DNA of 61,000 bases, filler included, from Hausera hauseri (lineage: Eukaryota): assembly GCA_046269625.1 (NCBI GenBank). It is 8 parts of 8 records of this genome, joined end to end, with 100 filler letters (N's around TTAATTAATTAA, not from the genome) between each part and the next. Parts side by side here need not be neighbours in the genome. Positions count along the whole stretch, not along the records: positions 19,143 to 24,595 come from JBJURY010251958.1; positions 24,696 to 28,935 come from JBJURY010681773.1; 6 more parts are not named here. One strand, written 5' to 3'. Below the pieces are notes generated by a model. That model was not told the DNA's origin. It saw only the letters and a program-made list of their open reading frames with translations, and ran no database searches. Made by a program: the position numbers and the translations under genes. The first letter of the stretch is position 1. Each line of letters begins with the position of its first letter. Shown here in pieces: positions 14,059-58,969 of this stretch.

Positions 14059-15745
14059 AAAGAAGAAGTCAAAGGATTGGAGAAGTAATAGCTTCTGTAA
14101 CAGAAAATTAAGAAGAACTTCATAAACCAAAGGAATATATTCTTTTACCCAAGATCAAAGGTACAGATTTAAATATAGAAGAGTATGCTGAATTTAGTCT
14201 TTTATTACTGAAATATGAAGATGTATTTGCCAAAAATGAAGATTATTTAGGAAAATTAAAAGATTTTCAAGTTGCAATAAAGCTAAAAGAGGATCCAAAG
14301 ACAGGATATGAACTGAATCTAGCAGATTAACCTCAACCAAAATATTATCTGCCACCTGAAGCAGAACGACAAGATTTAGACGAAGAAATTAAAAGATTGC
14401 TCAGACTAAAGATAACAGAAAAGACCAATGCACCGTGGGTATCTTCAACCCTCATGGTTCCAAAGAAGAACACAACCAAAAAGCGATTGTGTATCGACTT
14501 TCCACATATAAATAACTTTATAATAAACAATACTTTTCCATTACCAAAAATAAAAGAAATAATCAAAAAGTTGAAAAACAGCGAATTTTATATAACTATC
14601 GATTTTCAATGCGGTTTCTGGCATGTTAAAATTGTTGAAGAAGATAGATATAAAACAGCTTTTAGAGTACCACAAGGAATCTATCAGTTTAAAAGGATGT
14701 CATTGGGTTTAAAAATAGCCCCGTCAGTATTCCAAAGTTAATGACGCAAATTTTAACAGAAGAAAATAATCCTGGTGCAGAAACGATAACTAGCACCAAA
14801 GAAGGAGATATGGTATATATTGATGATCTAATCCTTACTGGTAATAATTTTAATCAGTTAATGGCAAAGCTAAAAGACAAATTAGAACGTTGTAGAAAAA
14901 CAAGTTTAAAAATCAATCCTATGAAATGCAAATGGTTCAAACGAGAAATAACATACCTCGGATTCAAGATATCAAAAGAAGGAATAACCACTATTTGACC
15001 AGCTATCCTATCTTAATTCCAACAAAAGATCTGTTAGCTATTACAGTTGCAAAAAAGTTTATTAGCAAAATAGTTTGTCAATTTGGCGCCCCACGATACC
15101 TATTAACAGACAGAGCACCAAACTTCCAAAGCGAATTATTAAAAAAAATAACAGATATATGTCAAACTAATAGGTTGCTAACAACAGCATATCATCCTCA
15201 ATGTAATGGTAAAATCGAAAGATTGAATTATACCGTGCAATGTATACTATCAGCCATGGTAGATAAGACACAAAAGGATTGGGACATCCACTTAAAACTT
15301 GTGCAGTTTGCAATTGCAACTACACCTACTAGTTCATCAGGATATACACCATTGGAATTAATGTATGGTAGAAAATTACTACTGCCAATGGACGATCAGT
15401 CTGATGAAGAAATACATGAAAGTGTTGTAAATAGTTTAGCAAATTGCTGGAAAAAAGCTAAACAAGCAATCAAACAATATAAACAAGACTATCAAGAGTA
15501 CTATAATAAAAAAGCTAAACCTCATAAATTCCAACCGGGTGATAGAGTAATGGTACATTATCCAGTAGCGAAACCAAAAAAATCATTAAAACTGACACGT
15601 ATAGATAAAGAACCTTACTTAGTAGTAAAGGCCACACCTGAAAACATATTTATTTAAAAAGGCACTGGTGAAAAGACCAGAATTGAATGTGTATCCACTC
15701 AAAGAGTCACGAAAGGACCAAAGGATCCAAAAGCTAAAGAGGGGC
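14059..15745 (+). mobile_element. Internally deleted Ty3/Gypsy pol fragment: RT joined directly to the integrase core (RNase H deleted)
   Basis: RT motifs: APWVSS.LMVPKK, RLCIDF, IDFQCGFWHV, KTAF, YIDD. Abrupt junction at ~14997 to integrase FGAPRYLLTDRAPNF..TTAYHPQCNGKIER and a GPY/F-like KFQPGDRV..EPYLV. Stops and frameshifts are present, and no LTRs are seen. Confidence 0.9.
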
Positions 15746-15756
15746 CTTGATATTCA

Positions 15757-16940
15757 TTGCGATCAACAAAACAACCTGTTTTAAAACTAGCCTGTAGCTT
15801 AGAACAGTTATTTCTCATAATTATGATTTTTGGTCTAATACTATCAACCACGGCACAAACTTTAGTAACAGACCATATAGTTACAAACTTAGAAATACGG
15901 GTACAAATTACCTGGCAGAATTCATTAAACTTAGTAAATGGATCATTCGTAGGAGAATCAAAATACAAAGAAATGACTCAATTAGTTCTGTCACCAGAAG
16001 TAAACGACGCAATTTGGTTATCAACTAAACGTTGTTGAATCCTACTATTAACCGAAATTTGCCTTATAGATCTTTATTTTCTAACAACTGAAATGTTATT
16101 GAAACCGAAACAGAAAATCCTGCCTATAGCAAGACAGGTACAAGTAGAAAAAATTGGTGAAAAAGCCTTAAACTTCCACATTCATATGACATTACTGCAA
16201 TTCTTTAAAATAAGGCAAGAAATAATACCAACTGTGGCCACCTTATCAACAACTAGTAATAACCCAATTACTATATTCAACTTGAATAAAATACCTGAGG
16301 TTACCATGATAGCAACAGACTCGTATTTTGAGTTTAAAGTCTTTCAACTAATAGAGGACCCCACTTTTATAACTTGCGTAGGAAAATACCATATTATGTA
16401 TGCCATTATAAAAAAGTACGAAAGGATAACTAGATGCATTGACCTCCAGCCTGACGAAGAATATCTAATTGTTTTCACTCAACACCATGCAGTAACAAGC
16501 CATCGAACAATCAGAGCTCAAACGAGAACCAAAAGATATCTAATACATGAAGAATTTCTAGTTTACACACCAACGCAGTTAATGACTAGTCCTAGTACTC
16601 AAACAAATATGCTAAAGATCATAATACCCTCTATAATAATAATACTCCTCTTACTGTCCATATCCACACCCTTTGTAATAATTAAAATAAAAAGATTTTC
16701 TAAAAAACAAAATATTATGAATAAGACTCTGTTACTGTTGACTAACCTAATATGTCTAGTAGGTTATAGTGTGGAGTGGATAATCGACGTTCAGAGAGAT
16801 AAAAAATTCAATCTAAGGCACAAATATGCAAAAATGCTCATACAACATAGAATAATATTACTGACACACATGTCAGTAAATAAGAGCAAATCTCAACCAA
16901 TAGATTTGCAATACTTTAATAACGCAATTACACCAATGAT
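15757..16940 (+). pseudogene. Env-position type I membrane protein ORF of the Gypsy fragment (signal, FN3-like motifs, RTKR, TM)
   Basis: ORFs 15757..16038 and 16093..17046 are in the same frame as integrase 14926..15657. Signal-like MIFGLILSTTAQ; NLEIRVQITW and LQPDEEYLIV motifs; RTKR; TM IIIPSIIIILLLLSISTPFVII followed by KIKR. Confidence 0.5.
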
Positions 16941-17852
16941 TTACAAATTTAGTGCGCCAATTTTCGTATTTGTCAATACCAAAAATGGTGCACCAATTTT
17001 CACATTCATCAATACCAGATATAGTGGGCTAATTTTCGTATTTTAAATACCAAATTTAGTGCAGCAATTTTCTTATTTTTAATACCAAATTTAGTGCATC
17101 GATTTTCCTATTCATCAATACCAAATGTGGTGCACAGATTTCCTCATCCATAAATACCAAATTTAGTGCACCAACTTTCATATTTATCAGTACCAAATTC
17201 ACTACACATATATTCGTATTTATCTATACCAAGCATGGTGCACTAATTTTCTCACCCATCAATACCAAATATAGTGCACCGATGAGCACATTTATCGACA
17301 CCAAATATAGTGCACCGATCTTCGTATTTATCAATACCAAATGTGGTACACTAATTTCTCATTTATCAATACCAAATTCCGTGCACAAATTTTCGTATTT
17401 ATCTATACGAAATGTGGTGCACCAACTTTCTCGTTCATCAATACCAAATATAGTGCACCGATTTTCGTAGTTTTCCATGCCAATTTTAGTGCAACAATTA
17501 TCATATTTAACAACATCAAATATAGTGCACCAAGTTTCACCTTTATCTATACCAAATTCAGTCACGCATTTTCGTATTTACCAATACCAAATATAGTGCA
17601 CCAATTTTCTTATTTACCAATACCAAATTTAGTACACAAATTTTCGTATTTATCTATACCATATGTGGTGCACCAATTTTCACATTCATAAATACGAATT
17701 TAGTGCACAAATATTCAAATTTATCAACACCAATTTTAGTGAACCCATTTTCGTATTTATCAATACCACATGTAATGCACTGATTACTCATTCATCAGTA
17801 CCAAATATAGTGCACTAATTTTCATATTTATCAATACCAAATTTAGTGCGCC
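16941..17852. repeat. ~36-bp tandem satellite, right block (~25 units)
   Basis: Same aataccaaat(t/a)tagtgcaccaattttc unit as 13765-14058. Confidence 0.95.
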
Positions 17853-19142: not shown

Positions 19143-19850
19143 CACATATCGCTTTCCGGTAGTTTCATTGAACTTTAGTTCCTTAATTTTAATAAAATTA
19201 CAACTTCTTCCAGAAGGCGGTTCCCATATTATAACAGAACTTCTAAAGGCACAGGTTCCGCCTTGTAAATGACACTTTTGATTCTAGGTATATAACTTTG
19301 TGACACTATGGAACATTACTTTCTGTGACCGCATCTCCGATTCGTAAAAATCCACGACTATCACGTTTGTTTGTAATCCTTTTTCGGTGTCGTATTCCTC
19401 TCCGTTGCAATGTCAGCTATTCATATCTAATCTTCTGACCACTATTTTGTATGCCTTAATTATCTTTCCGGGTTGCATTTCTAATTCAATACTGTCCTAT
19501 TGTACTCTTCCAGTCTCCTTGGCCTATTTGCAGTGCTGGCATTCTAAGTTCATTGGGACAAGGGGAGTTGTTGGTTTGATTATTGAGAAATGTCAGTGTA
19601 CTAGCCCACAGTGAAAAATGCTACGAGATCGTCTCAGCATACACTCCATTCCGTCTAACGATATCAATTCTTGTTGTTGGTACAGGCAGTAATTTTTCTC
19701 TTTAATTTCTAACTTGTGCGGCATTGCATCTTCGCACACCTCTAAATCCATTAGGGAATACCTCTGCCCTAGTTTAAATTTATCGCAATCGTAGACGGTA
19801 ATAGTCCCTATTTGCTTTATTAACATCATCAAGATGAGAAGGTTAATTAA
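19143..19850 (-). pseudogene. N-terminal part of a chuvirus-like envelope glycoprotein of a retroelement
   Basis: Hydrophobic signal WLINLLILMMLIKQIG, then TITVYDC...YSLMDLEVC...LYQQ...ECMLRRSRSIFHCGL. It continues through stops to CQHC..KETG, CNG and KCHLQGGTCAFRSSVIIWEPP..RSC before the spacer. Confidence 0.7.
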
Positions 19851-20002
19851 CCAACTTGATTCACTTTTCCGGTGGCTAATATCCGTTGTTGTCAAATTAC
19901 TTAACATATCATCAAGTCTATTACTATTACTGGTCCGTTTGTCTTCTTCTTTTCAAATAGTCTTGACCAAGTTACTTCGTGGGGCAGTTTCCTCGCCGCT
20001 CT

Positions 20003-23000
20003 TTATGCTAAGCTTATAGATTTGTTGATTTCATTCTCTCGATTGGGGTTTATTTTGATGGCTAAGTATAGTAATACTTTTCTTAATTCCTCATTGGTGT
20101 TTTCTACCACAATCTTTTCGATTACCGCTTTATCGGTTAAGTTACTTTTTGATAGTTTAAAACGTGAATTTCTCATCATTCTAGCTGCATTAAATATTAC
20201 TTTTTTTATCATCTAGTGTGTCACCTCGAAGGCTCGAATAATTTACAATTCATATAAGTTTCTTCATTAACTCACTTAATTTTTCATTGTTTGTGCTGAA
20301 AGTCGGAATCAACATTTGTCTCAATTCTCTAATCAATTCTCCATTATAATCAGTCTTCTCTCGCATCTTTTTAGGCCTGCCAACTGGAAGTTTTTGTCTT
20401 GGGACATTGGCTATCATTTCACTCAGAGGCGCTAAATTTTTGTCGTATTGTTCGTTATCCACATCCGTTTGTAGATACTCGAAGTACATTGCAGCATCTC
20501 GGACTTCCATAATTTGTCCTACGCATTGTTCTGTCCTAGCCTTACGCGTGGCTTCTTCTTTAGTTTGTTTATTGACTACTATTACCACTATTCGATTTGT
20601 TTCGTCGGGAATAATTCCGACGTCTGTTAACTGTTTTAAATCGTCTAGTATTATACCTCTAAAATAAAATCTATAATTTAGCTCGTTTGTTCCGCCATTA
20701 TTTAATAACCATTCTCTTACGTCCGTCACATAGGAATATGTAGATTGTTCACATTCTTTTTCACATATCCACTCGGATGATACCAACACTTTCATCGTCA
20801 CCTCAGGATTAGCCTTCAAGATTTTAGCGTATTTTTATCAAAAAGTTTCAGCACTGTACTATAAATGGTATTTACGCTAGATAATTTAGTTAAGGTCGGG
20901 ATGAGTTGTTTTAACTTGCTTTCAATAATGTTTACGTTAATTAGTTCAATCAAATTTTTCTCAGTTAGCGCTGAATCCAGGAGCATTTCCACATTGTATC
21001 ACTTGTTCTGCGGGGGTTGTTTCTATTTCTTTTAGCTATACCGGAGTCAGGGGAGTTTTGGCCGTTATCGCCCATAAGTAAGCGTCCCATTCCGGTTCAT
21101 TTCCCACATCTGGAAGTCCATAGTCTATTAAGGCTATATTCGTTCTCTGCACATTTTTTCGAATTTCCTTTAATTTTGGTAGTATTTCCTTTACCTGCGT
21201 AGTTCGGAAACCTATTCCGTTTCCACAAGCATACTGAATCATCTTAAGCAGTTCACCTAACTTATTCAAATGGATGAATCCCTTTTGGTGATAATCGGTT
21301 AGTTCGATAATTACATCTCTTTGCCATGTTTGTACGAATTCTCGCTTGTTTTTGATTTCTGATTTGGTAAAAGCATATTTGTTTCAGTAGATTTCGAGCT
21401 CTTTTACTAATTCGTCTAACCTTGTTGCTCTTTGTTTGGTTTTAATGCAGGTCTCTTCAACCTCTCTTATTTTAGGCATCAATAGCCTCATTCTCTCATC
21501 ATTAATTTCTGCCATTTCTACTAATATGAAGGCTAGCTCATACATCTCATTTATGACTTTTGAGTCGGGATCTATTTCATCCAGCAATTTCTTTACAAAC
21601 TTAGATTCCTGAAAACTAAAATGTTAGTCGTCTCTTATCCTTGTCAACTCGGTATGGCAATTCTGATCCGATCCGGCCATCCATTCTTGTGGGTTACGCA
21701 AGAATTTCATTGCTTCTGTTAAAGTGGCTCGATATTCCGGACAAATATCTAGGGTTTCAATATGTTGGACAGAGATCTCGTCGATAGGTTTATCTGTTAA
21801 ATGTTGGACTCCCTCTAGTCGGACATTTCTTAACCTTGGGTAAAAATTGCAAGTCATATTTTGCTTTTCTGTAAAGTTTGTCTCTTCGACCATTTTATAG
21901 ATCTTTTCCAGTATCGTCGCCTTTTGTTTCTTCATAAAATTTAGCCGTCGTAATGCTTCTAATTGAATTCGGATATCTATTTCCGCCTTTATTGTGTCTA
22001 GGTTATGTGCACTTTCTTCTAACTGTTTCTTTATAGAAGGCTCGCTTTCTGGAAATTCTTTCCTACGATTTTCCACTAATTTACTTAGTCGCGTTATTAA
22101 CTCGGACCATTCCGACAACTGATTGGCGATTATTGGCTTTGCCATTATAGACTTATCTAGCATCTTATATGCATCCTTTAATTCATCATTTGGGCCCTTT
22201 ACGAAATTCATAATCCGACGACATAGCTAAACTTGTCCTTATACTAGTCAAATTCTATGATACAAGCCTTTACTACGAATTGGGTTTCTTCGTGATTTGG
22301 AGACATAATTCGGTTTCTCAAGCTACAAATCTGCGCTCGCTTTTCATTTTCTACTTTGATTCGCTTTTCTAGGTTCGTATATTGTTTAGGTACAGCGAAT
22401 GCAATTTTATCATCTCCATCAAGAGAGGGATATCTATTGCGTCTATACCCAATATTTCTAAATCGATATCACTTCGGTTATTAACCGGTTTTTCTCTAAG
22501 TCGATTAATCATTACACAACAAATTCCATCCATAATGCGCTCTAGATTGTGTACTACTCTCTTTAGTTTTGGGTTTGTTTCTAAGGTAAACAATAGCGTC
22601 TGAGCCTTAGTGACTTTTATATCAACACTATCTTCGTTTTTGCTCCATCCTTCCGAAAATTCCACTCCACTTTTGATCCATGATTCGAATTCATGCCGCC
22701 ATTTTGACAGTGTTTCGGGTAATACTTCTTTAGGTTGTCCTAGGTAGATTGCTTCATTAAGTTTTTCTTTACTGCATAATTTTAGACTTTTATACAACCT
22801 ATCAGCATGCTGTTGCTCTTTTCCAGATATATCTACTTGTTCGCTAATCTGCTTAAGCTTTTCTAAATTTCGCTGTAGTATTTCTGGGTCGTGACACCTA
22901 ATTCTCATTTTTAACTCATTGGCGTTTTTCCAGGAACGTCGAACTTTCCACTTTCTTGGATCAAAATCAGCGATATTTTCCGTTTCTCCCTCACTAGTAG

Positions 23001-23400
23001 GAAGTGGGCAAACCTCGTTAATTTCATTAATTAACTCTGTAGATTCTTCTATCTCGGCAGGTGTGGATGCACCAATTTCTGTTGTGTTCAAGCTAGGTTC
23101 TACGTCGCTTCCTTTAGCGATATTAGTATCTTTCGTTTCTTCTCTAGTTACTTGTGAGCGTGAGCGGTTTTTTAGTGCAGGGCTATGGCCTTTATTTTTC
23201 GTAATCTTGAGTATTAATGGCTCCATAATTTCTTTTTCTGCTGTATCGCCTTTGGTAGACTTATCCGCTTTTTCGATCGCGAATTCGGGCTCCGCATCTA
23301 GGTCGACCTCTGTCGAGGTTCCTGGTTTATCCGTTATTTCATTACTCGTTGGTACACTTTTTTTCCTGTCACGTCAATTCGTTTAGGTGCTATGGTATGC
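20003..23400 (-). pseudogene. Accessory region between gag and env: charged helical/coiled-coil ORF pieces plus a ubiquitin-like domain (~20575-20795)
   Basis: Co-oriented ORF fragments 22369..23226, 21624..22211, 21384..21587, 21036..21269, 20250..20819 and 20003..20212 are E/K/L-rich. ORF 20250 contains VTDVREWL...YRFYFRGIILDDLKQLTDVGI...IVVIV, a UBL pattern. Confidence 0.6.
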
Positions 23401-23604
23401 TCATATTCAATTTCAGGTTCTGCTAAACCATGGTATACTTCTTAAAATCTTAGCTTATCTCCATATTCTCTTCTAGCCATCAAAATTTGTGGGTTAATAG
23501 TCTCAGGTTGAGTATCTAGAAATTTTCGTAAGTCTTGTATGTCGATAATAGTACCTGCTCTCCGCGAATACCATACATAGCCTTTCAATTCTCATTAACT
23601 TTAA

Positions 23605-24595
23605 TCATACTAGTCTTATTAGACTCAGTAAATGAAACGCTACGTGGATTGGACATGCCCTTGAAATATGTACTTCTTTTCCGCAAGTGAAACAAACTAA
23701 ATTTGCGTTCCTGCCGACACTTTGTGGGCCGTCTTCGTTCACATGTGACTTAGGCCTATTTGTACTTCTATCGTACTGATTCGGCCAACCTTGTATACTA
23801 TCTACGTTTCTTCGACTATCATTATTTCGATTATTATCATCGCGAATCGAATAGTAAGAACCTTTGTAGTTTTCTCGAATTCCATTGGAGTTTGATTTGT
23901 TCGTATTTCGATCGTTAGTATAACTATTGTTTCGACTATTCCTGTAGTCATTATTACTATTTCTATTTTCATAATTCCTATTTCCATTAACTCGTCTATC
24001 ATCTCTTCCATGATTGTCATTTTGATTTCTATCGTTACAGTCATTTGGATCATTATTTCTATCGTTCCTATCGTTGTGTCTGGCATATCTATTAAGTGCC
24101 ATTTCTAAATCTTGAGCCAATTGTAGAGTTTTCTCGAAATTCTCAGGTCTGGCCAAAATCAACCTCTGAACTAAATCTCTGGACCAAATACCGTTAATTA
24201 ATTGAGTTGTTATCAGGACGTCTAAATCTGGCGGGGTTGCCTTTTCCGCAGCATCATGTTCTGCGTCTGTTTTAGCTTTTGCTACATTAGTTATTCGTAG
24301 AGTACTTACATAACTATTAGCGAGTTTTTTCAATGCAAATGCAAACTGGGTTACAGATTCGCCCTTTTGTTGCACCCTATTTTGGAATGCCATAAGTTTC
24401 TGTTGTGGCGTTACGGTCGGCAACAATTTACGATTTAATGCTCCTACCAGGGAGGAACAAGTCTTTTTTCCTTATTAGTGAGCTCACTATAAGCGTCAGC
24501 CGCAAAATTTTTCAAATACAACAAAAAGCGTTTAATCATCACTTCAGGAATGAGACTAGCACCTTCTGTGTGTAATTTATAAGTTCTCAAGAATT
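23605..24595 (-). pseudogene. gag: Gag (capsid C-terminal domain, N/D/R-rich linker, CCHC knuckle)
   Basis: RVQQKGESVTQFAFALKKLA (major-homology-like), QLINGI..LVQRLILARPENFEKTLQLA, CFTCGKEVHISRAC. Confidence 0.88.
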
Positions 24596-24695
24596 NNNNN
24601 NNNNNNNNNNNNNNNNNNNNNNNNNNNNNNNNNNNNNNNTTAATTAATTAANNNNNNNNNNNNNNNNNNNNNNNNNNNNNNNNNNNNNNNNNNNN

Positions 24696-27560
24696 ACATC
24701 GTAAAAGAACGCTTCGGCTACAGTATGACTAGTCATATTTTTCAAAGGTATCAGAACAACATATCTTGAATAGTAATCAACAAGTGATAAAATGTATTTA
24801 TATCCTGATTCAGATGTTGGAAATGGTCCAGATATGTCCACCGAACACACTTCCATAGGCTGCCTTGCTTCGGGAAGACTTCCTAAAAGGGCTTTGCTCG
24901 AAATCCTCTATCCTTACGGGCAGCGCACATTTTACAGGAACGTACCCATCCTTCAATATGTTTATTCATTTGAGACCAATAATATTTTGTGGCGATGTGT
25001 TTCAATGTTTTGTTTAACGACGGATGACCCGCTAAATGAGAATCATATTCCTGAAGCACAACTGCTTTGATTGCCAAATTGAGTACAATAATTAACTTTC
25101 TTTCGCCAACAAAGTTTTACTATTCCATTTTCAATGTCTATTTGTTCCTTATGTTGCCCGTAAAATTTCTGAATAGAACTTGATACTTGATCGTCCGTAT
25201 GTCCATTTATTATGGTTTTGACTTGAACAATAAATAGATCTTGATTTTGTAGGTTTTGAATATTTTGAATCTGAATTTGTCTCTGTTCTTGTAGCATGTC
25301 ATTAATAATTTTCTCATTTAACTGTTTATCTTCTTCTTTGACTTGTGGTTTATAAACCGCAGCGACAATATTTTCATATGGCAATCTAGAAATTGCGTCT
25401 GCGTCTCCATTTTCTTTTCCTGGTCGGTATCGATATTCAATATCATAATTCAAAAGCTCTAGATTCCATCTTTGGAGTCGACTTGATACATGTCTATTAT
25501 CTGAGCGCAAAGAGAGTAGTGCTTTGTGATCCGCAAATATTACAATTTTATGACCATAGATGTAATATTCATAATGTGTTAATCCATCGCGTATTGCTAA
25601 TAATTCTAATTCCGTTGTAGAATATTTCCTTTCAGAATTATTCAAACTTCGTCCTCCATATGCGATTACATGTTCAGTTGTCTCTTATGGACACTGTTGT
25701 GCTAAAATATAACTAATAGCTTTAATGCTGGCGTCTGTTTTCAAGATAAGTGGAAGTGAAAAATCTGGATATCGTAATATTGGAGCTGATACTAAGCGTC
25801 TTTTTATTTCGTCAAATGCTTCTTGATTTTCTTCAATCCATTCCCATTTTTGATCTTTTCTAAGTAATTTATATTCAGGTTTATTTATTTCCGCAAAGTT
25901 GTCAATAAACGTAGCATAGAATCCACTTAATCCTAACCAGGCTGGCATCTCATGTACACTGGTAAGAGGAGGATATTACAAAATTTTAGATATTAAGTTT
26001 GTACTGGTCGATATGCCTTGATTGGAGACAACAAATCCGAGATATCTGACTTCAGTTTTACACCATTCGCACTTTTTGGATTCAGTTTTAGTTTGGCCGT
26101 TCTGATCCGATCGATCACTTCTCGTAATTCTACTAAGTGTGCTACCATGTTTTTGAAGCAATTAAAATACCGCCTATGTACGATAGTCCACGTACTCCTT
26201 TCAAGACGAGTCGAATAAATTCTCGAATAAATTGTAGGTGCCGTTTTTAAACCGAATGGCATACATGTAAATTGGTAAACGCCTGCATGCGTTTTGAATG
26301 AGTCTTCCAACGATTTTTTTCGGCTACGAGAATCTGCCAAAATTCGCTCTGCAGATCCAATGTGGTGAAATACTTATATCCTTTCAACTCATCAATGATA
26401 TCTCTTATTCGTGGTATTGGACAAGCATGATTCGCCAAATGTTTGTTCAATGTAACATAGTTTACGCATAAACTATGTTTCATGGTATTGGCTTTCTTTG
26501 CCATAACTACAGGCGATGGCCATGGTGATTGACTAGGTTCAATGATGCCTTTTTTAAGCATGGCTTGTATTTGCTCCTCAACTTCCTTTTGGAGTGCTTT
26601 TGGAGGCGGGTACCATTTTGGTATCGGTTGTCGTAACAAGTCTATTTCTTTTCCAGTTTGAGAATTCATCATGAATGCTAATTTGAACTCGACTAAGTCC
26701 CTTCGGCCAATGTCCGTTTCATTTTTGGAAAATATATCAATGTATTCAAGGATGAGATCTGAAAAGTTCTTAAGGTACTCAGCTGCTAGATTTTTCTTTG
26801 CATTAGTGAGAACAACATCGAATATATCTCCTGCTTTAGTGTCCTTATCTTCAGTGATTGATGCAATTTTACTGTCATATTCAGGTTGACGGATAGTTTC
26901 ATATGCTTGGCCTAATTTCGTTCTTGCAAACATTGTAATATACTTAGGAGATGAATTCAAAACTTCAATGGGAATTGTTCCTCCAGTTACACAAACACAA
27001 TAGTGTGGCAATAACAATCCATTTTGAAATATCCGTGGTATGAATTCAATTATTTTGTTATCTGGAAATATTGTTCTAGCATGTATAACCTTTCTAGAAT
27101 TAGGTGGTATTTTCTCCATATGTCTTGTGCAAATGTCCGTTATATAGTATTTATCCGGAATATCCTCAGTATTTGGACAAAGCGATCCTGACTGCAAATT
27201 TATGTGAAAGCCTTTCAAATTTCTTAATACTTTCATTCCTAAAATACATCTGGGATCTAGAGTTGTTATTATATCTAAAGTCATTTTTAGTATTTTTCCA
27301 CAAATTACAGGTTTGCATTTCCAATATCCATATGGTTTCAGGCATTGCTAAAAGGCTGATGTCGTACCGGTACATTCTTTTGGAGCCAATTTTATATGTG
27401 ACTGATATTCTTCTGGTATCGCGTGTTTTGCTATTAGTAAAATACTAGCTCCCGTGTCTACCATTTCACTTATATCGAAAGAATCGAAGTGAACTATCGT
27501 ATGACGTCGATTATCTCTTATTAGCTCGCGAAAAGTCAGTATGTCATTATTATCATCTAT
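24696..27560 (-). pseudogene. pol: Ty3/Gypsy pol: aspartic protease, dUTPase-like spacer, RT, RNase H, integrase (frameshifted)
   Basis: MVDTGAS (~27450); IIEPSQSPWPSPVVM, FTTLDLQSEFWQI, MPFGLKTAP; LKTDAS, ERKYSTTELELLAI, DHKAL, NGDADAISR; HLAGH..YYW..CKMC and VDISGPF. The order PR-RT-RH-IN identifies Gypsy. Confidence 0.93.
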
Positions 27561-28206
27561 ATGAGGCTCCATTAAGGTATAACTTGCTGAACAATAACTT
27601 GGTGACCCGTTTAATAATATGACCGTTAAACTATCTAAAGATTGCGCATCATTTGTTGGCTCTTTCGTTCGTTGTTTGAATTCAATTAAATCCGGGTAAT
27701 AATTTGCACGTTCAGTAGAGCTTTGTTGTATGTTAGCATGTGGCATTGTTGAAATCAAATAATTTGTCCTTCCGTTTCGTTGTTCCATATCATTATCGTT
27801 GGTTGGTCTATTTACTTTTACTCGATGATGAGGTATAGATGGCAATGTTTTTAATTTTGGAGAGATTTGTAGTGATACTCTATTCCTTTCCATACTTTGA
27901 GTAATAATAGTTTGAAGTATTTTTCTTGTGAATATTTTGGAATACTACGTAGTTTTGTGTATTCTTCTCTTTTAGCATATAAGTCATTCAGGTCAGATAA
28001 CTTTGGTAGTTTGTCAATTGTTTGTTCGTCAATTAAACGTGTTTTAGTTTCATAAGGAGCATCTGGTACTATACGATTGCTCTTTAGTCTTGTTTTCTTT
28101 AGTGGGAAAAATTTTCGGATTTTCGGGTTCTTTTTCTTAGAAATATTAGGTTCTGAGTAATATCCAGGTGCATCATCATCATAGTCTGAACTTGATGAGG
28201 TATCTT

Positions 28207-28935
28207 TCAATGTCGGATTATTATTCTTATAATCCACATGCTTTCCAATTTACCTCGCCATTGCTTTTCATGGTAAGCTTTAATAAATTTACCAAGAGGA
28301 GAAAATAGAGCACCAATTATGCTCAAAGATAATCCTGTCAGATTGTAAATTTCATAAGCGTTTAATATTAAATTGATACAAACTTTCAGAGTTTGTAGAA
28401 TAAAGTAAATAGCCAGAAATCCGGAAGCTACTAGCCCAAATGTTAGAAATCCACCCCACATTTTGTGCCATAAACGGGAAACTATTTTTGTATAAGCACC
28501 GAGCGTCCACAATCGATTCTATTTTCCTTCTCCAGCAGAATCATCGATTACTCTATGTATTCCTCTGTTTACTACCTGCTCTTGTTGTCTCGGATATGCC
28601 AGAAATTTTACAAGTGAGTCAATTTCTTTCTTGCTATACAATGCTGACTTTGATATATCAGTAAACACATTCGTTTCGATAGAATGTCTGAGGTTAGTCA
28701 TAGTTCATTTTTTGGCTGTTTCTTTACTCTATGTCTATCAGGTAGTCTGACCCTTAAGTCTTGGTTATCGTATTTGATAAATGGCTTGTTCAGTGCTGTA
28801 CAGTTTTGAATTTCCTTTGATATTGTATGTGGCGTCAACAATACTCTAGTTATTGGCTGAACATATCGAATTTCGTCTTTATACTTAACCAGTATTTCTG
28901 AATAACATGGAGTACCTGTAACTAATGGTAAATCC
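28207..28935 (-). pseudogene. C-terminal part of a chuvirus-like glycoprotein with membrane anchors, immediately upstream of protease-pol
   Basis: PCYSEILVKY..RYVQPITRVL..NC; SALYSKKEIDSLVKFLAYP; MWGGFLTFGLVASGFLAIYFILQTLKVCINLILNAYEIYNLTGLSLSIIGALFSPL. Overlapping ORF pieces 27851..28237 and 27348..27893 follow and lead into the protease. Confidence 0.72.
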
Positions 28936-30379: not shown

Positions 30380-32410
30380 TTAAAAGGAAAAATTCTGTAT
30401 TTAGTTACTTACAATATTTAAACAACTACACTAGTTAATGTCCCGACTACGGCAAGTAAAACGAGGGTTGAATAAGTCAAATAAAGGTCGTTGTTAACAT
30501 TGAAGGAATGAATGATGACCACAAAAATATGGAACATAAAGCAAATATAAAAATACATTTGGAATCATAAAAATTAGTTGGGAGATTTCTTGTTTTGAAT
30601 CCAGCATATGTTGAAATAACAAGTTTCAACCAATTCCAACCAATCGGTATCCAGAATCTTGGAAAATCTCTTCTACAAATTATTTCGACATATTCAATTT
30701 TTGGATTCGGCATATTAACATCTGAGTAGTTTCCATCATAGAATTGCTGGATCAATAGCAACGTTGCATCAACACAAATCACAACAACAGTGGCAGACAT
30801 AATAAATTTGTTTGATGTAAATAATACTTGTTTGCTACCTTTCATAGCCGATGAAAATATGCAATATATTCTAAGAGTCTTCATTAGAGTACTGGTATAA
30901 ACGACTCCCAGAGACCAAGTCACCATGAAAGACTGAATTATACATTTCCCTTTACTCGGTTCCCCTATGTACATGATCATACTTATACATGTTAGAAATA
31001 ATGCAGATAACGTGATAATACTTCTTTCAAACGAACTGGCTTTCAAACGTCTCGACGGTCGTTTGGTTATGTAGACATAAATAACGAATATTTTGACCAT
31101 GGACCCTATACCGCATGCGACAAAGTCAATGATGGATATCCATGAGTTCCATTGCAGATAAACAGGTTGTATTTGGCCACATTGATCCGAATCTTGTCTA
31201 GGCCAATAGAATGTTTGACACGGAATACAGCGCAGTCTATCGGACAAAGGAATCTCGTTGACCTGGCAAGTCTGACATAGCAGACAGCAGGATGTTAATG
31301 CAGACTTGATCTGAAATGGGCCATATTCCATTAGACTTTGTTTTTGGATACGACGTCAATATCTGGATTGTACAATACTCCATTGAGTGTTATTTCTTGT
31401 TCTTGACTCCAGGATCCGATTTGTCTCATGGCTGTCAATGAATATTGTTGAAGAATGGAATACATTGGCTGTGAATCACCATTGGCATTGAGACTTACAT
31501 TTCGAGTTATTCCGTTGAATCGAGTATTGCTCAGATATGTATAAAGTTTTGTACTATCGATGCACTTGTATAAATTTGATTTACTATTCCCGGAACATTG
31601 GCTTCTGATGTAGTTTGAAATGGTTACCCCAAACACACGCACAACATCTTTTATTGCTTCTACGTTCAGATAGTCTTCTATTTTATTAGCAATGTACGGA
31701 TAATTTTCGCAATAGCATAGAGTACAATACACATCGTCCTGGAAGCAGCATTTGTTCTCAATTCGCCAGAATTCCTTGTAGAATGGATACTTCATCCCCT
31801 TTTGTAATGTTAAACCATTGCATACTTGTATGGTTGTTGAATTAAGGTTCACTGTTAGACTTATTGAAATGGAATTTTTGGTTACGTTTGCGTATGTTGA
31901 TGATAGTTCAAATGTAGCATCGGATCCAATGAAAATGAAATCTGTGATTAATTTGTGAGAGAAAATTGTCATTCCACGTACCAAAATAGAGAATGTAAGT
32001 TAAAAACTGCTTGATATTCTTCAAATCAAGAAGATCCGCCTTCAGAGTTGCGGAATTCGTTATGTCTATAATTTTCCCAATACAAACACTATTCATTTTG
32101 GTCATTTTACTCATGAGTGTTAAAAATGAGTTTAACAACCCAGTTCCATGCGTGTTAGCTTGATACGCAATAGGAACATACCGAATTTTTAACAATTTGA
32201 CAAATTTTAGTATTGCCCTTGCTTGGCAGTTGTCGGATGCAACGAGTGTCAACAGAAATGGATTGTTCGCCTTACCCGTGAATTCATCCGATGTTGAATG
32301 ACCGGTAATCTGAAGAGTTTTGAGGTTCTGCAAATATTTCGAGATGACCAACGTCTCACTGATGTATACACCGTCAACAACACCGACGATTATGTAATAT
32401 TTCGAGTTCG
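30380..32410 (-). pseudogene. Class C GPCR (metabotropic glutamate receptor-like), intronless, frameshifted
   Basis: Venus flytrap IVGVVDG..S....ISKYLQ..QITGHSTSDE..LVASDNCQARAIL, FIFIGSD, FNGITRNVSLNANGD. Cys-rich CCLLCQTC..RCIPC..FYWP..DQC. 7TM motifs LKASSFE, LMKTLRIYCIF, FKTRNLPTNF. Split into three ORFs with stops. Confidence 0.85.
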
Positions 32411-32574
32411 CATGTTACCACTGAGTTTCTGGGATTTGGTCATGTTGGGTTTTTTACACAGTCAGCATTCGGCTTTTGTTTGAGAGACTTTTATTTAAAA
32501 CTTTTCATCGATTCACTATGCCTCATCAAAAGTTTTGACTGATTTCTGTTGATATTATTGTGACTTCTGTCGTA

Positions 32575-34889: not shown

Positions 34890-37800
34890 CACCATTGTTG
34901 ATTTGGTAAAGAATTTTGATTGTCCATAAATAAATCCTTTTGTTTGATTATGGCAAACAACATTATAAATATCATTTAAAAAATCAATTCAAAGATCAAA
35001 CTTTTGTATGAAACTGTGCCAAACAATTAAAACAATGTGGTACACGAAACCGTTAAAAGTTAATAAAATTGGGCACCACGATGAGGCAAAAACGACGGAA
35101 GTGCGCCAGTTTTTCGACAATTAAAAATACAAATAACAATGAAAGAGAAAACAATAACATTGTATTTACAAGTCAAAAAAATCAAAGTACGGCCCCTGTT
35201 GGGCACATCACCCCTCGTGGCAACGAAACGACTATACAGGTAAGATAATAGGAAACGTAGAAACGGTGTAGGCTGTCTAAGTGGCTTTTGTATGAATAAG
35301 ACGTTGTATTCCTGCGGTGTTAATCTCCTTACTGTAGGTACTAAATGTGACGGATTTGTGATTTTTCAATGTCTTTGAATCAGATTGCAGAGGTGATAGA
35401 GGTAAAACAATGTCGGATTCCGTCGTTGAGAGTGGTGTCATTCAGAGACGAAAAAGGAGCTGGAGGGGGAGATGTAGGAGAAAAGGAAGTAAAGGGTGGA
35501 AAGTTAGTAGTAGGGGAGTTTGGATTAGGTTCTGGTAAAGGAGTAGGTGTAGGGTTTTGAATGGAAAGGGGTGCAGGGGTTGGAGGAACTGAAAGGGGAA
35601 AAGGCAGAGGAGTCAGAAGGGGTCTAGAAGATTCAATTTGGGGGGGGTATCGTCTACGAAAAAGGCAGGCTTGACGTTGTTGATATGCACCGCTAGTTCT
35701 TTACCGTCTTTAGAAATAATGGCATTGTGGGATTGCAATTGGACGAGTTTGTAAGGCCCCAAATAACGTGGCTGAAAACCGCATGGTGTCTGCTTTCTCA
35801 GCCAAACAAACTTTGCAGAATATAAATCGTCGGGTAGGTACGTTTTGTTATGTATTATTCTGCAGCATGAATCTTTGCTGACAGACAATGATTCTGTGCC
35901 GTTCGGATAGCTTCATCTGTAGGTGTATCTTCCAATGCTGTAAGCTCAAGTAATGAACGTACGGGTGCTCCGAATAGGACTTCTGTAGGTGAACAACCTG
36001 TAGAAGTTGAAGGAGTGTTTCGCCAACCCAATAGAACTAACGGAAGAAGAGTAGTCCAACTACTATTGGATTCAGTGAGGATTCTCAGTGACGTTTTTAG
36101 TGTTCTATGGAATCTCTAGAAGACCATTCGATTGGGGTGATACGGTGTTGTGTGTATATGGCTGATTCCTAATCGGCTAACGAGTGATTTAAACAAGTTG
36201 GACTCAAACTGAGTGACTTGGTCTGTAATAATGAACCTAAGGGATCCAAACCTGCTGATCCAAGTGCGTATGAAAACATCGTCTATGGTCTCTGTGTTAG
36301 TGTTCCGCAGAGGGACAGCTTCTGGCCACTGGAGGAACGATCCATCATGGTCAAAATAAACTGATGACCGTTGTCAGGAGGAAGAGGACCAACAAGATCT
36401 ATATGTACGGACTCGAAACGCGATGTGCAAGGGAAATGATATAGCGGTGGCTTCAAATGCTTGATGGTTTTAAATTTTTGATAGGCCACACATTTTTTAA
36501 CCCACGCTTGCACATCAGAGCGCATAGATGGCCAGATAATCTGTCGGTGAAGCAAGCGAAAGGTGGCTTTAACACCGGGGTGGTGTAGTTAATGTACGCT
36601 GAAGAATGCCTGTTTTTGCAACCAGGAGCTAAGATTATTTTAGACTCCCGGTTTAGACATGTCGAAAGCTACGCTGTCAATGGTGTTGTAGGATCGAAAA
36701 GATTTAAGCATGTCCGAAGGTGGTTGGTTTTCTTGCAGTTGATCTTGTGAAAATAGGCTTAAAATTAATGGAGCTAACGGATCTGGAAAGAGTCGGCGAC
36801 TAAGTTATTTACACCGTTAATGTGTTTGATCTCGAAATTGAACGTCGACGAGTATGAGATTTGTCGTTCCTCCCGAGATGATGGGCGTTTCATTGTCATT
36901 ATATTGATTAAAGGCTTGTGGTCGGTCTGTATGGTAAAGTGGAGAGCAGTATGTAGATGGGAGAAATGTTTTAATGCGAGAACTATGGCCAATAGCTCTC
37001 GGTCAAACGTTGAGTACCTAGTTTCAGGAGGTGTTATCTTGCGTGAGAAAAACTCCAAAGGCTGGTTCCCTCCTTTATGGAGTTGATGAAGTACGGTGGT
37101 GGAGGCGTCTGTAGTGAGGATCAGCTGTGCATCATCCTTGGGGAAAGCTAATATTTCGAGTTCTTAAACCTTCTCTTAGCTTTTCGAATTTGTTTACTAG
37201 TTCAGGAGTCCATAGTATGGTGTTTTTTTGCTGGTGTTTTTTTTCCACTACTGAGGTGAGCAAATGGTGCGGTAAGTTCGGAGCAGTACGGAGCATACTT
37301 GTGAACGAAGTGCAAGGTGCCCCAAAAAAACTCCTCATTTCTGTTGTTGTACGAGGTAACTGCACGATTTTTAGGGCTTCAACTCGATCGGGTTGAGGCG
37401 AGTGGCCTTTAGAAGAAATAATGTGGCCAAGGAAATTTATACGCTTCTGGAAGTGACATTTGGCGAAATTAATCTGCAGGTTATTCTGGTGTAAACGTTG
37501 AAAGATTGATCTGATGTGTTCTTTGTGTTGTTGGGTTGAAGAAGAAACAATCAATGTCATCGATATGGGGATGAGCATATGGAAAATCAGAAAGAATAGC
37601 ATCGATGTGGCGTTGAAGGCTGCGCAGCATTCGTAGGCCGAAAGGCATGTACAGATATTCATAAAGGCCAAAAGGAGTAGTGACGGCTGTTTTTTCCATA
37701 TCCTCAGGTGCCACAGGAATTTGGTGGTAGGCTTTGGATAAATCAATGATAGAATACATTGTAGTGGAATTGAGACGGTAAGATATCCTTTATGAGTGGC

Positions 37801-39800
37801 AGCGGGTATGTATCCATTATGGTCAGTGTTCAACTTGCGATAATCGCCACATGGTCTAAAAGTTCCATCCTTTTGCACGGCATGCAATGGCGACGACCAT
37901 GGGGATTTGGAGCGATGTACAATGCCGGAGCGTTCGAGGTCTAGAAATTCGGCTTCAACGGCCTGTCTACGACGATGAGACGATGGACGCACTTTCTGGC
38001 AGATAAGTCTCTGATGTTGTGTTATAATGTGGTGAAAAGTGGTATTTTCTTGTATAAAGGACCAGTCTTTTTGAATAATTCTAGAACAAGATACCTTGAT
38101 GAATTTCTGAAGACTTTCATGTAATTGTGAAAAGTTTGGTGGGAGCGAGGTTTTACCAGGAACTGTGGTATCAGTAACAGTAGCAATTTGGGCGTTATTC
38201 GGTGATGTAAAATGAAGTGGTATACGATGCAGGATTGTAGTATTGAAGATGGTATTGTAGCTGTTTGTTTTATCTAATGATTTGGCAGTATTAACGGAAT
38301 CACGCTCATCACCGTGCAAACTCCAATCGTCAGTAATAGTGTTCTTTAGTAATTTATAAAACAAGATACCATGATTGTAAGAAAAAGGTTTGTTCAACGG
38401 TTTTTTTAATATCGGCTTTCGAGTAGCATTCACCCGTACGACAGCCGAAATGGTATCGGCGTGATCGATTACCTCCTTATTGCAACCACTTGTTAAGCAA
38501 CGTTGTTTGCAGTCGACAAGATTATAGTGCGAAAGAAAGTCGGATCCTAAAATGACGTTTGCAATGGTAAATGTCCAGTGAAACATTGAAGTAAATGTCG
38601 GAAGGGTAAAAGAAAGCCTGCATGTACCGGAAACGTGTTGCGGTTGTCCTGAAGCGGTAAATAGAGGTTTATATTTGGATGAAGTATGTTGAGTTGGAAA
38701 GGTGAGCGGCAGTAACGAAATCGCTGCACCTGAATCGATAAGGAAGTCTGTGTTGGGGCGTCGGGGCTGTGGTAGAGGCTTGTAATGTGAACACTGCAAA
38801 AGAAATCTTTCGGCTATTAGATAGTGAAGAATTGCCTTCGTCAATGCTTGCCGAAAGCTCTGGCAGCGAAGTTAGTTTTTTGAAAGAGGAGAACCAGGGT
38901 GGCTGTTAGAGGCAAAGGTTGCGTGTCCGTCATTTGCACGATAGGGTTTGCTCTCAAAAGTGCAACCTGAAATGCATCTGCGTGCATTATGTCTGAATTT
39001 TGCAAGATATATACAAATGACGTTGTCTGTACGATATTTCTGGGTATAAAATTTGCACCTTAGGTGGCATTTTTGTGCTTTATTATCAAACCTACCGTGA
39101 TAATAGCAAATCTATAAACGTCCGGATGAAGGTGACCGACCATGTGATGCAGGACGGTTACGGTCAGTGACGAGACCTTCGTTGTCAGAGAAATTTCATT
39201 TAATCTATTATTAATATTATTAATTGTTGTTTCTAAAGTCGTATTTTTAGCCCGTAGTTGGTTTAATTGATGTTCGAATGCTGTATTATTGATGCTAACG
39301 GCTGCAGAAATGATTGGCTGTGCATGTAGGTTCAGGACTTTATGTTTTATCTGCTAGTTCGGCCAATTTGTCAAGAGTTGTCGATGCTTCGGCGACGATA
39401 AGTAATGCTCTGATCTGGATGGGCAATGTGTTTAGGAAGTAGCGTCGTAAGAGGTCGGCATTATGTTGTTTAGTAACGCCGAGAGTTTGCAGTTGAGCAA
39501 GAGAGGTTCTGAGGAAATTAGATGGTTTCTGCGTTCCCATGGCATTGTCATTAAAAAATCGGTGGATAATGGAATCCATAGATGGTTCCGTAAGTTTAGT
39601 ACTGCGTTGTAGAAGTGTTTTTATGGATCAAATTGTTGGAATATATCTAACAGATCATGAATAGATGTTTTTACTGCAGTCGGTAAGAGATAAAGTAAGC
39701 TATGGGCTTTGGCTGATGGATCAGTAATGTTGTTATACTGCAGTCAAAGTTTGTGAAAGTTAAGCCAGGTTTTGCTGGACTTTTTATGGTCAATAAAGTA
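34890..39800 (-). mobile_element. Degraded Ty3/Gypsy LTR retrotransposon (gag, PR, RT, RH, IN, probable 3' LTR)
   Basis: gag MGTQKPSNFLR..LDKLAELAD; FLIDSGA; SKSPWSSPLH, RPCGDYRKLN, IDLSKAYHQIP, MPFGL, HIDD; ETRYSTFDRELLAI, TDHKPL; VHIDLVGPLP, QPRYLGPYK. A purine tract followed by TG lies near 35207-35217. Confidence 0.92.
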
Positions 39801-46344: not shown

Positions 46345-48042
46345 CTACTGTCTCCACATCTCCCAAAGGTACTGGTCGATTTCGCCAGGTGCGGGGGCAT
46401 AATTGAAAGCTGCCATATAACCCCTTACTTGGGCCGCCGCGAGATCCATTTCTCTGTGGATGTTCGCACGGATCATGGCGGATGCCATACCGGGAGGTGG
46501 TAAGCGTGGCATCCCCCTTAAAGGTGGCATCCCATGAGGAACCGGTGATAGTTGGGGACCACGGATCATTCCCCTACGCCATGGGTATGTTGAAAACCCC
46601 GGAGACCCACTATCAACTTCCATCCTCCGTGGGTTCCAATAAGGGCGTACCGCTCGAGATCCCGGTCCTCTCACGTTGGGACGACCCCTTTGATTCCTTT
46701 CTCGCCCCATCGGCTGCATAGGCGAAGCTGAAGTCGGCGGAACACAGTCCAGTCCCAGACGAGATTGCAACGATGAAGGGCGAGCCCCGGCAAATCGGAC
46801 CCTTTGTGTCGCTCTGCCCCGCAAAGCGGGTGACGTGCTATTCACCCCCAGTCGGTCCTGAAGAGATGAGGGGCGAGGACCACTAGGCCGAGCAGTTGGA
46901 GCAGCTTCGGCCGATGAGACAGGAGTCTCACAGGACATCCCCAGTCTCTCGTGTACCTTACGACCCTGACCCGATGTTGGAAGTTTCCCAGTGGCCACTA
47001 CCGGACGAGGAATCTTCTTGGTTCCCCTCCGTGTAATCTTCCCCTTGGTTCTGGAGAGGGAAGCCCCACTTGACGGAATGTTCACACCCGATGGTCCGGG
47101 GAGTGAAACATCCGCCTCCGGTTCGTCGATTGGGGCTGTGGCACTGGTACTAGCCGATGTCGACGACTCCGACTTCGGACTAGCTTTAGCACTAGGGTAT
47201 ATTATCCTAGATTTGATTGGTGCTTTGGTCTTGGGTATCACAGGCTTTGGTTTGACCCCACGGGTTTTGTTCTTAAAACCAGTGGGGGAGTCGGACAAAC
47301 GTCTCCTTAAATAAAGCCAGAAAGAACGGCAGGTTCTTCCGGTCGGATGTACTCCGTCCGATAGATAACCTCCCTCGCCTATGGTTTGACAACCACCGGC
47401 GAGGAAGCCATCCATCCGATGACGTTGAGGACGGAGTCTCCCAATAACCTGTGCGCCCAACAACTTTTCATATTCGCTTATAGACCCCGTAAACAGTTCT
47501 GACTGTGGGTCTATAATTTCTAGGTATCTCTTGATTGTTGCTAAGTAGAGCTTTGATGGTTCAAATGCCGGGTCCTCACGATATTTTCGTCTTATTGACT
47601 CCGGTGCATCTCTAACCATAAGCTCGTTCTTATACACTAAGTCAAGAGGTGGAGGTAGAAAAAGGAAAACCTTAGCTTGCGGAGCTATTAATTTGACTCT
47701 TGACTTAAAGGTGTAATAATGATGGATGAAGGTGTCAAGATGAAAGTCAGGATTGGGAATTATGGCGAAATAACTTCGTTTGTCATCGGGGCCGCTAAGG
47801 TTGAATTTCTTGAAGGCTTCCGTGATTAGCGTGAATAACACTACATGAGTAGTGTCTTCAGCCAAATCCCCCGGGAGGTAAGTAATAAGTTGCGTCAAGC
47901 GAGCTCCCGGGTAAGAAGCAAACTCAACTTTGGCCTCCGGAATTCCCAAATCCTTAACATTGAATGTTTTCTCAAGGGTTGTTACCCAAGAGTGTCCCAC
48001 AATCAAAAGCTGGAACAGATAATAATAATAGAAATCAGGCAT
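46345..48042 (-). CDS. ORF3: SGNH/GDSL-hydrolase-like domain plus long basic, disordered R/G/P-rich tail
   Basis: LLIVGHSW (block I), SYPGARL (block II), HVVLF, KVFLFLPPP, YLSDGVHPT (block V). The C-terminal ~300 aa are low-complexity with SSLQ.RLG repeats. No TM segment. Confidence 0.75.
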   Translation of the reverse strand: MPDFYYYYLFQLLIVGHSWVTTLEKTFNVKDLGIPEAKVEFASYPGARLTQLITYLPGDLAEDTTHVVLFTLITEAFKKFNLSGPDDKRSYFAIIPNPDFHLDTFIHHYYTFKSRVKLIAPQAKVFLFLPPPLDLVYKNELMVRDAPESIRRKYREDPAFEPSKLYLATIKRYLEIIDPQSELFTGSISEYEKLLGAQVIGRLRPQRHRMDGFLAGGCQTIGEGGYLSDGVHPTGRTCRSFWLYLRRRLSDSPTGFKNKTRGVKPKPVIPKTKAPIKSRIIYPSAKASPKSESSTSASTSATAPIDEPEADVSLPGPSGVNIPSSGASLSRTKGKITRRGTKKIPRPVVATGKLPTSGQGRKVHERLGMSCETPVSSAEAAPTARPSGPRPSSLQDRLGVNSTSPALRGRATQRVRFAGARPSSLQSRLGLDCVPPTSASPMQPMGRERNQRGRPNVRGPGSRAVRPYWNPRRMEVDSGSPGFSTYPWRRGMIRGPQLSPVPHGMPPLRGMPRLPPPGMASAMIRANIHREMDLAAAQVRGYMAAFNYAPAPGEIDQYLWEMWRQ

Positions 48043-48101
48043 GGTTTCTTAAGACATTCATCTTGACTATTTCACTATAATTCAATTTCCTTTGTTCCCA
48101 G

Positions 48102-58045: not shown

Positions 58046-58969
58046 TTTGATAATTATCAAGATGTTTATTCTAATGCATACGTTATTTCTATCTGTATAT
58101 AACTGTGTAAATCTATGATCTCCATTATGTGCTCTCTATATCGCTGCGTTATCGCTTTGCTGTCAACGATTTTCGCCAACGATTCCTTAGCAATGCCGGA
58201 TTTACTGCCCCTTTATTTTCTGTATGTCATTGATGACATTTTAATGTGTCTATGTAAAAAAATTGTTTTTTGTTTTGTTTAAAATAATACAATTTGTAGT
58301 GCAAGTTAAACATTTTTCTATGCCATATTGCATTTTAAATTGGATTTCTACATTTTGACGAAATTGTTTTCAATCTCAATTTACGTCTTTTAAATATTCA
58401 ATGTGTTCGTTTATTAGCGGATTTGAAAGTTCTTTATGGGATTGTATTATGATTATTCCAGGGACACCGAAATTACATATTATTTATTCGATTGTTCAAT
58501 TCAATTTGACCAACTGTTTTAGTCATCGAATTTAAAACCAGGAAAAAGATTCTGTCTGCGGCAAGTTTAATCGGTGATACACTATGTGCACTTAATTTGA
58601 TTTTTGTTAAAAATGTAACAAAACAGTATCCTAATTTTGGTTGTTCAATTATAACTACTAATGGGTAGGTCCTTGGCGCTGTCGAACAATGTTATGTTGG
58701 TGAGTTTGAGGTCTGAATGCACTGGTTTCCTCTGCCATGTGATTTCGCCATTTCTAAAGATCATTGCGTCCGAAGTAAGGAGGTCCTCACGAAGAGAAAG
58801 CTCTGATAAATCACTGTTATACTCACTTGAGTTGGATGACTGAGGATGATTCATAATCGTGTCCGGTTCAAATTCAAACAATAAAGTCCCCATCATCAGA
58901 TGATGACTATTCGTAATGCAGTCTGATTTTTCAACATTTCTGACACTCGGCAAATCAACAAAACTCAAA

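Follow-up and report, generated by a model that had tools for sequence, protein, structure and literature searches.

The stretch of DNA analyzed here (the window) comprises 61,000 nucleotides, filler included, of the Hausera hauseri genome (GenBank assembly GCA_046269625.1) and joins eight unrelated contigs end to end. Two of these, contig A (JBJURY010251958.1, positions 19143-24595) and contig B (JBJURY010681773.1, positions 24696-28935), together 9,693 bases, carry pieces of a Ty3/gypsy-type retroelement in which a virus-like fusion glycoprotein (Env) appears to lie between Gag and Pol. All features of the element are on the minus strand and are interrupted by stops and frame switches. Listed in the direction of translation within each contig, with the spacer between them, they are:

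23980..24593, minus strand: capsid-like region of gag, 5' end missing, one frame switch (open frames; no profile match)
23653..23694, minus strand: single CCHC-type zinc knuckle following a stretch rich in Asn, Arg and Asp (zf-CCHC, E 0.007, below cut-off)
22230..23590, minus strand: cargo X1, a low-complexity stretch followed by ~230 residues without known domain (open reading frame (ORF) of 334 amino acids)
20985..22226, minus strand: cargo X2, ~414 codons with three stops; its second half is conserved in a single protein without a name (P0003)
20560..20800, minus strand: probable ubiquitin/SUMO-like domain (UBL), weak (Pfam ubiquitin, E 0.079)
19953..20550, minus strand: ~200 codons separating UBL and glycoprotein, at the position of the Bcl-2-like domain of the planarian element Burro (no Bcl-2 match)
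19794..19850, minus strand: internal hydrophobic segment that likely serves as the glycoprotein's signal-anchor (Kyte-Doolittle peak 1.94; start of the PF24664 match)
19143..19844, minus strand: N-terminal part of a gB-type (Monjiviricetes/chuvirus-like) glycoprotein, truncated where the contig ends, with five stops (PF24664)
24596..24695, no strand: artificial spacer between the unrelated contigs A and B (same 100 bases at every gap)
28276..28935, minus strand: C-terminal part of the glycoprotein, cut by the contig start (PF24664; membrane anchor at ~28452-28363)
27474..28275, minus strand: coding linker of ~270 codons without gag or repeat boundary (frame-event count, profile searches)
27216..27473, minus strand: aspartic protease, DTG motif at 27458 (RVP, E 0.006)
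26901..27191, minus strand: insert between protease and reverse transcriptase (no dUTPase match)
26077..26620, minus strand: reverse transcriptase, broken by frame switches (RVT_1, two weak pieces, E 0.0013 and 0.001)
25445..25840, minus strand: connection and RNase H (RT_RNaseH_2, E 8.4e-31; RT_RNaseH, E 5.1e-28)
24696..25044, minus strand: zinc-binding domain of the integrase and first part of its core, truncated where the contig ends (Integrase_H2C2, E 2.9e-15; rve, E 3.2e-6)

Both glycoprotein parts match the Pfam profile PF24664 (Monjiviricetes_fusion) above its cut-off. With stops read as X, positions 7-227 of its 653 positions align with approximately 19844-19194 in contig A (E 2.7e-15). 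In contig B, positions 394-421 align with the start of the glycoprotein (E 0.012) and positions 468-601 with approximately 28671-28276 (E 7.5e-22). The two halves are collinear and, as a preliminary description of this window had stated, do not overlap; about 140 profile positions are present in neither contig. One long hydrophobic stretch closes the glycoprotein (28452-28363, Kyte-Doolittle 2.06); where the preliminary description had several helices, there is one clear membrane segment. None of the other eight ORFs tested has hydrophobic peaks like those flanking the glycoprotein. The cysteines of the N-terminal part are spaced 11/26/41/45/7/17, with one extra cysteine three residues before the third. 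Sequence searches with the glycoprotein returned no match in the PDB and none among phage records. The fusogen homology proposed in the preliminary description is borne out by the profile matches, and both halves are supported, at the level of sequence, as a chuvirus-like class III (gB-type) fusion glycoprotein.

Behind the glycoprotein, contig B encodes a linker followed by protease, reverse transcriptase (RT), RNase H and integrase (PR-RT-RH-IN), an order given in the preliminary description and confirmed by Pfam matches. The domain set is that of Ty3/gypsy elements (PF17917, PF17919 and PF17921), with no Pao-type family among the pol profile matches of this contig, and 28/28 pol proteins match it by tblastn. 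Membrane anchor and protease motif are 1,000 bases apart within the contig. The linker between glycoprotein and protease can be read through 273 codons with 2 stops or frame switches, against 10.4 +/- 1.9 in shuffled sequence; it gave no Pfam or NCBIfam match and none to a capsid or knuckle. The insert between protease and RT, which looks dUTPase-like, was not confirmed as such: it gave no dUTPase profile match and no PDB sequence match. When the RNase H was used as query, 28 of 1,434 proteins matched at 31-47% identity; all 28 carry PF17917, none carries PF24664, and none matches contig A.

The other neighborhood of the glycoprotein is seen in contig A, where the zinc knuckle, with one conserved position altered, ends ~3.8 kb upstream of it. 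The region 23980..24593 holds what we take to be capsid motifs; capsid profiles found no match in the gag region, and a PDB sequence search was likewise empty. Another element of the window has an intact gag, and this scores only E 0.018 against the same capsid profiles. From the knuckle, the position and the presumed capsid motifs, the upstream region of contig A is likely, if weakly, identified as gag. Since the contigs end inside gag and integrase, the long terminal repeats lie outside the sequence.

Gag and glycoprotein are separated by ~3.7 kb, close to the extent described beforehand. Here, 1,216 codons are crossed with 14 stops or frame switches, compared with 48.7 +/- 3.6 (minimum 37) in 300 shuffles, and because of this difference the stretch is decayed coding DNA. 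Pfam profile and tblastn searches found no pol domain or remnant in it. The cargo it encodes is helical and without known domain. Cargo X1 gave chance-level matches only against Pfam and NCBIfam. In a set of 1.84 billion cluster representatives, cargo X2 has a sole relative, P0003, which matches it at 21527-21081 with 38-40% identity across ~150 amino acids (E 4.5e-18); P0003 itself has no family name and gave no usable match in the Atlas. The segment 20800-20560 is a fair lead for a ubiquitin-like domain: four of eight Atlas rows for it were ubiquitin/SUMO clusters (0.81-0.82), to be read as leads only. A sequence search of the PDB found no match for this segment, and the single-sequence model of its ORF (predicted local distance difference test score, pLDDT, 32) was too poor for a fold search. 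A Bcl-2-like assignment of 19953-20550, considered on the basis of a short motif, was rejected, as the segment has no profile match and no hydrophobic helices after it. No cargo piece matched BIR, MATH, ankyrin or Bcl-2 in Pfam, which is less sensitive than the HHpred searches of the Burro paper.

Taken separately, the two contigs fix the gene order independently of any linkage between them: contig A has gag and then env, without pol, and contig B has env and then pol, without gag. The preliminary description had considered the contigs swapped; all seven gaps of the window are the identical artificial 100-base spacer, so contig order carries no information on this point. Two public runs contain contig A, with shares of 0.36 (run X1) and 0.05 (run X2), and their contigs were aligned to A and B separately, at 80% likeness. 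In runs X1 and X2, respectively, 15,472 and 940 contigs align to contig A and 8,456 and 853 to contig B, covering 30/30 bins of each in each run. Mean summed depth, a weak measure that is not a copy number, was 6,540 and 106 for contig A and 7,462 and 138 for contig B. No aligned piece spans a whole contig, and neither contig has a site at which many aligned records start or stop. The pieces listed bridge both junctions of the glycoprotein, with 19623-20029 in contig A and the series 27594-27922, 27804-28031, 27995-28205 and 28084-28324 in contig B. Because run contigs cover all bins and their ends are not piled up, contigs A and B, junctions included, are parts of a highly repeated sequence with many diverged copies. 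An insertion boundary between glycoprotein and protease, which the preliminary description had named as a finding that would count against it, was not seen; neither contig has long direct or inverted repeats at its junctions, and ends do not pile up there in other copies.

The copies of the element in this window are dead. The frame path crosses 13 stops and 9 frame switches in contig A and 4 stops and 7 frame switches in contig B (17 stops and 16 switches in total). We compared these breaks with differences in other contigs, using 12 of 43 (A) and 12 of 16 (B) length-difference rows and 40 of 1,629 (A) and 40 of 983 (B) letter rows. Among the differences listed, a length difference lies within 45 bases of at least 6/9 frame switches in contig A and at least 4/7 in contig B (1.6 expected, p 0.001 and 0.04), and a letter difference coincides with at least 4/13 and at least 2/4 stops (0.3 and 0.1 expected). 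Since they match such differences above chance, the breaks look like private decay of these copies, and this fits an ancestral long frame. A single Gag-cargo-Env-Pol polyprotein is thus likely, judging from coding continuity and private breaks; of the membrane-threaded polyprotein suggested earlier, this much stands, with the qualification that both copies are broken and the halves are not joined.

Hydropathy and the published Burro layout suggest how such a product might be threaded. Gag and ~1,200 cargo residues would be made in the cytosol, and the internal hydrophobic segment would act as a signal-anchor, sending the glycoprotein ectodomain to the lumen of the endoplasmic reticulum, where signal peptidase would release its N-terminus. 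The C-terminal membrane segment would serve as stop-transfer, so that linker and Pol would come to lie on the cytosolic side, attached to the tail of Env, from which the element's own protease would cut them. Gag, Env and Pol would in this way be delivered to one membrane in equal amounts, and enveloped particles carrying a class III fusogen could bud and then enter other cells by fusion. The most likely targets of the cargo would be ubiquitin/SUMO or cell-death pathways of the host, a guess by analogy with the Burro literature.

We consider it probable (roughly 0.8) that contigs A and B derive, as decayed fragments, from a repeated Ty3/gypsy element, likely one family ordered Gag-cargo-Env-Pol, and that its active ancestors likely produced a single polyprotein threaded through the membrane. 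In favor of one family, the glycoprotein halves are complementary and both contigs are found in the same two runs at similar depth and with a similar ratio of run X1 to run X2 (61.5 vs 54.1). The layout gag, cargo, possible UBL, glycoprotein and pol given in the preliminary description is supported, with gag and UBL weak by profile.

Several observations weigh against this interpretation. Gag and the UBL are below curated profile cut-offs, and run X1 is possibly the source sample and hence not independent. No contig, locus or protein joining the two halves was found, nor was a relative combining the glycoprotein with gag or pol in protein searches or in scans of IMG/VR and JGI metagenomes. The last two returned no relative at all; the UBL ORF matched 0 of 1,579 candidates among longer proteins, and the protease-RT query matched one of 2,849 proteins of 1,795-5,712 amino acids, a generic arachnid pol. 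Contig A looks somewhat more diverged from the other copies than contig B (47% vs 33% of aligned run X1 contigs are less than 90% alike), and the tetranucleotide likeness of contig B is 0.899 to the first contig of the window and 0.892 to contig A. Given this unequal divergence and unspecific likeness, A and B are possibly different copies or subfamilies. Finally, 3/9 frame switches in contig A and 3/7 in contig B have no counterpart among the rows listed, which leaves room for a programmed frameshift or separate ORFs.

The missing physical link and the unequal divergence from other copies would also be expected if A and B came from two different GAG-ENV-POL families of one genome, in which case the order would be true for each and the composite would not be one element. 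Such families can coexist, as Schmidtea mediterranea holds six of them (PMC13524379), and the first contig of the window holds another gypsy family. Against this stand the shared runs, the similar depth and run ratio and the complementary glycoprotein halves, together with a sense strand that is A-rich in both contigs (39.0% A in contig A and 37.5% in contig B), and we regard two families as unlikely.

A more radical alternative makes contig A a pol-less gag-env element, either a deleted gag-pol-env element or an Anakin-like BEL/Pao derivative, and contig B another env-pol kind, such as an ENV-GAG-POL element with a short gag. Gag is weakly identified, short-gag ENV-GAG-POL elements exist in mites (PMC13524379), and chuvirus glycoproteins occur in Pao elements, as in the mosquito BEL/Pao elements named Anakin (Dezordi et al., 10.1101/2020.02.15.950899). 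However, the cargo is a long coding sequence without pol remnants that other copies cover like its flanks, and neither capsid nor knuckle was matched in the 270-codon linker. The pol is of the gypsy set with no Pao-type match, and the cysteine spacing is as in known GAG-ENV-POL elements, so that this explanation is very improbable. Least credible of all, even in a fragmented short-contig assembly of a highly repetitive family, is a nested one-off insertion or misassembly that set a chuvirus-derived fragment beside gypsy genes, given two independent junctions in two contigs with coding continuous across both, tiled by other contigs without pile-up of ends and free of long repeats.

The reading of A and B as one Gag-cargo-Env-Pol family places the element among published systems. 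The preliminary description had treated an env between gag and pol as not yet known; this layout is real and already in print, for Burro in 2019 (PMC6431247) and for a class of elements in 2026 (PMC13524379). Specifically, GAG-ENV-POL gypsy elements with gB-type env are reported from Nematoda, Bryozoa and Platyhelminthes (Chary and Hayashi, eLife 2026, PMC13524379), and supplement 1 of that paper includes nine flatworm elements, six from S. mediterranea. Two of these, Smed_errantivirus_5 and Smed_errantivirus_6, resemble A and B in their Ty3/gypsy pol and in a gB-type env that is related to chuvirus glycoproteins and placed between gag and pol. Their cysteine spacing, by hand count, is 11/25/42/45/7/16, against 11/26/41/45/7/17 here. 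Gag to pol measures 10.9 and 12.0 kb in them, with 6 kb of flank removed, compared with 9,693 bases here, where parts of gag, glycoprotein and integrase are missing. The likeness to this class rests on layout, cysteine spacing and size. An insect C1-type row of the same paper has a similar cysteine pattern, which is accordingly not flatworm-specific and does not prove a flatworm host, probable as such a host is; in C2 rows of bryozoans and nematodes the pattern is, by eye, a different one.

Among the features of this class, our contigs have a PR-RT-RH-IN gypsy pol and an env that is gB-type by profile, has anchor, ectodomain and transmembrane segment and lies less than 2 kb upstream of pol. 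Where the class has gag at most ~5 kb upstream of env, the knuckle of contig A lies ~3.8 kb upstream, in a gag below profile cut-offs and with pol in the other contig. The class also has intact ORFs, LTRs, a primer-binding site and near-identical copies; the 17 stops and 16 frame switches found here mark decay and not another kind of element. The most likely place of the element is among the GAG-ENV-POL errantiviruses of flatworms. The main text of PMC13524379 does not contain the words "polyprotein", "ubiquitin", "Burro" or "dUTPase", and the paper describes neither cargo located between gag and env nor one continuous frame.

These last traits are those of Burro, in which env is reported to follow a SUMO/ubiquitin-like domain and to be flanked, in one frame, by gag and pol (Arkhipova and Yushenova 2019, PMC6431247). 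The relation to Burro-type planarian elements raised in the preliminary description is supported by that published layout. Like A and B, Burro/GYPSM1 has a mononegavirus-type fusion Env between gag and pol, long post-gag cargo and an insert between protease and RT (PMC6431247). The differences are several: the Burro ORF spans 4,873-5,140 amino acids, against an estimated 3,500-3,900 codons here, and the element exceeds 30 kb, against an estimated ~11-12 kb for the coding region here, LTRs and 3' region excluded, so that the giant size of Burro is lacking. Burro has two or three zinc knuckles where one is seen here, and a Ubi2/SUMO-like domain upstream of env whose counterpart here is weak (Pfam ubiquitin, E 0.079). 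Its BIR, MATH, ankyrin and Bcl-2-like cargo is unmatched here in Pfam, and where it has a dUTPase-like domain between protease and RT, the insert of contig B has no dUTPase match. The env of Burro is in frame within one ORF; here the sequence is coding throughout, with many breaks private to decayed copies. The element would work like a compact Burro and has neither the size nor the cargo that characterize Burro proper. Anakin, also an LTR retroelement, bears a glycoprotein of this kind; it is of the Pao type, and the pol found here is of the Ty3/gypsy type.

It is possible, if doubtful, that the ~1,200 cargo codons represent undescribed selected domains (X1 and X2) unlike the BIR, MATH, ankyrin and Bcl-2 domains of Burro, and that the element stands for a distinct lineage among compact enveloped retroelements of flatworms, one that has evolved its own proteins for modulating the host. 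For Burro, a cargo role in host ubiquitin/SUMO or cell-death pathways is itself a proposal (PMC6431247).

Other contigs of the window hold further gypsy sequences. The first contains a second, different decayed element (14100-17046, plus strand) with RT and integrase remnants and no nucleotide match to contigs A or B; its integrase frame continues into a signal-like hydrophobic stretch at ~15820 and a membrane segment at ~16610, followed by tandem repeats. An intact-looking gypsy pol of 1,701 amino acids (48102-53207, minus strand) carries, between its RNase H and integrase, an insert (50301-50720, minus strand) that weakly resembles deubiquitinases of the OTU type (Pfam OTU, E 0.085; OTUD3 structure 4bou, E 0.014); the position that we take to be that of the OTU catalytic cysteine is, by eye, a serine. 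This pol is followed by a third ORF of 567 amino acids (46345-48048, minus strand), for which Pfam and PDB searches gave no match; a DGVHP motif in its N-terminal half presumably recalls SGNH esterases. The minus strand also carries another gypsy protease-RT remnant (37132-38871), a class C G protein-coupled receptor (30477-32414; ANF_receptor, NCD3G and 7tm_3) in three frames with no obvious introns, and a DEAD-box helicase fragment (58645-59460).

Threading a fusion glycoprotein into a Gag-Pol polyprotein is an unusual design for an enveloped retroelement, and H. hauseri adds one more decayed, abundant family of this known layout. The one addition that may go beyond it is the cargo, still without a name, that lies between gag and env; it could extend the repertoire of proteins that elements of this type direct at their hosts.

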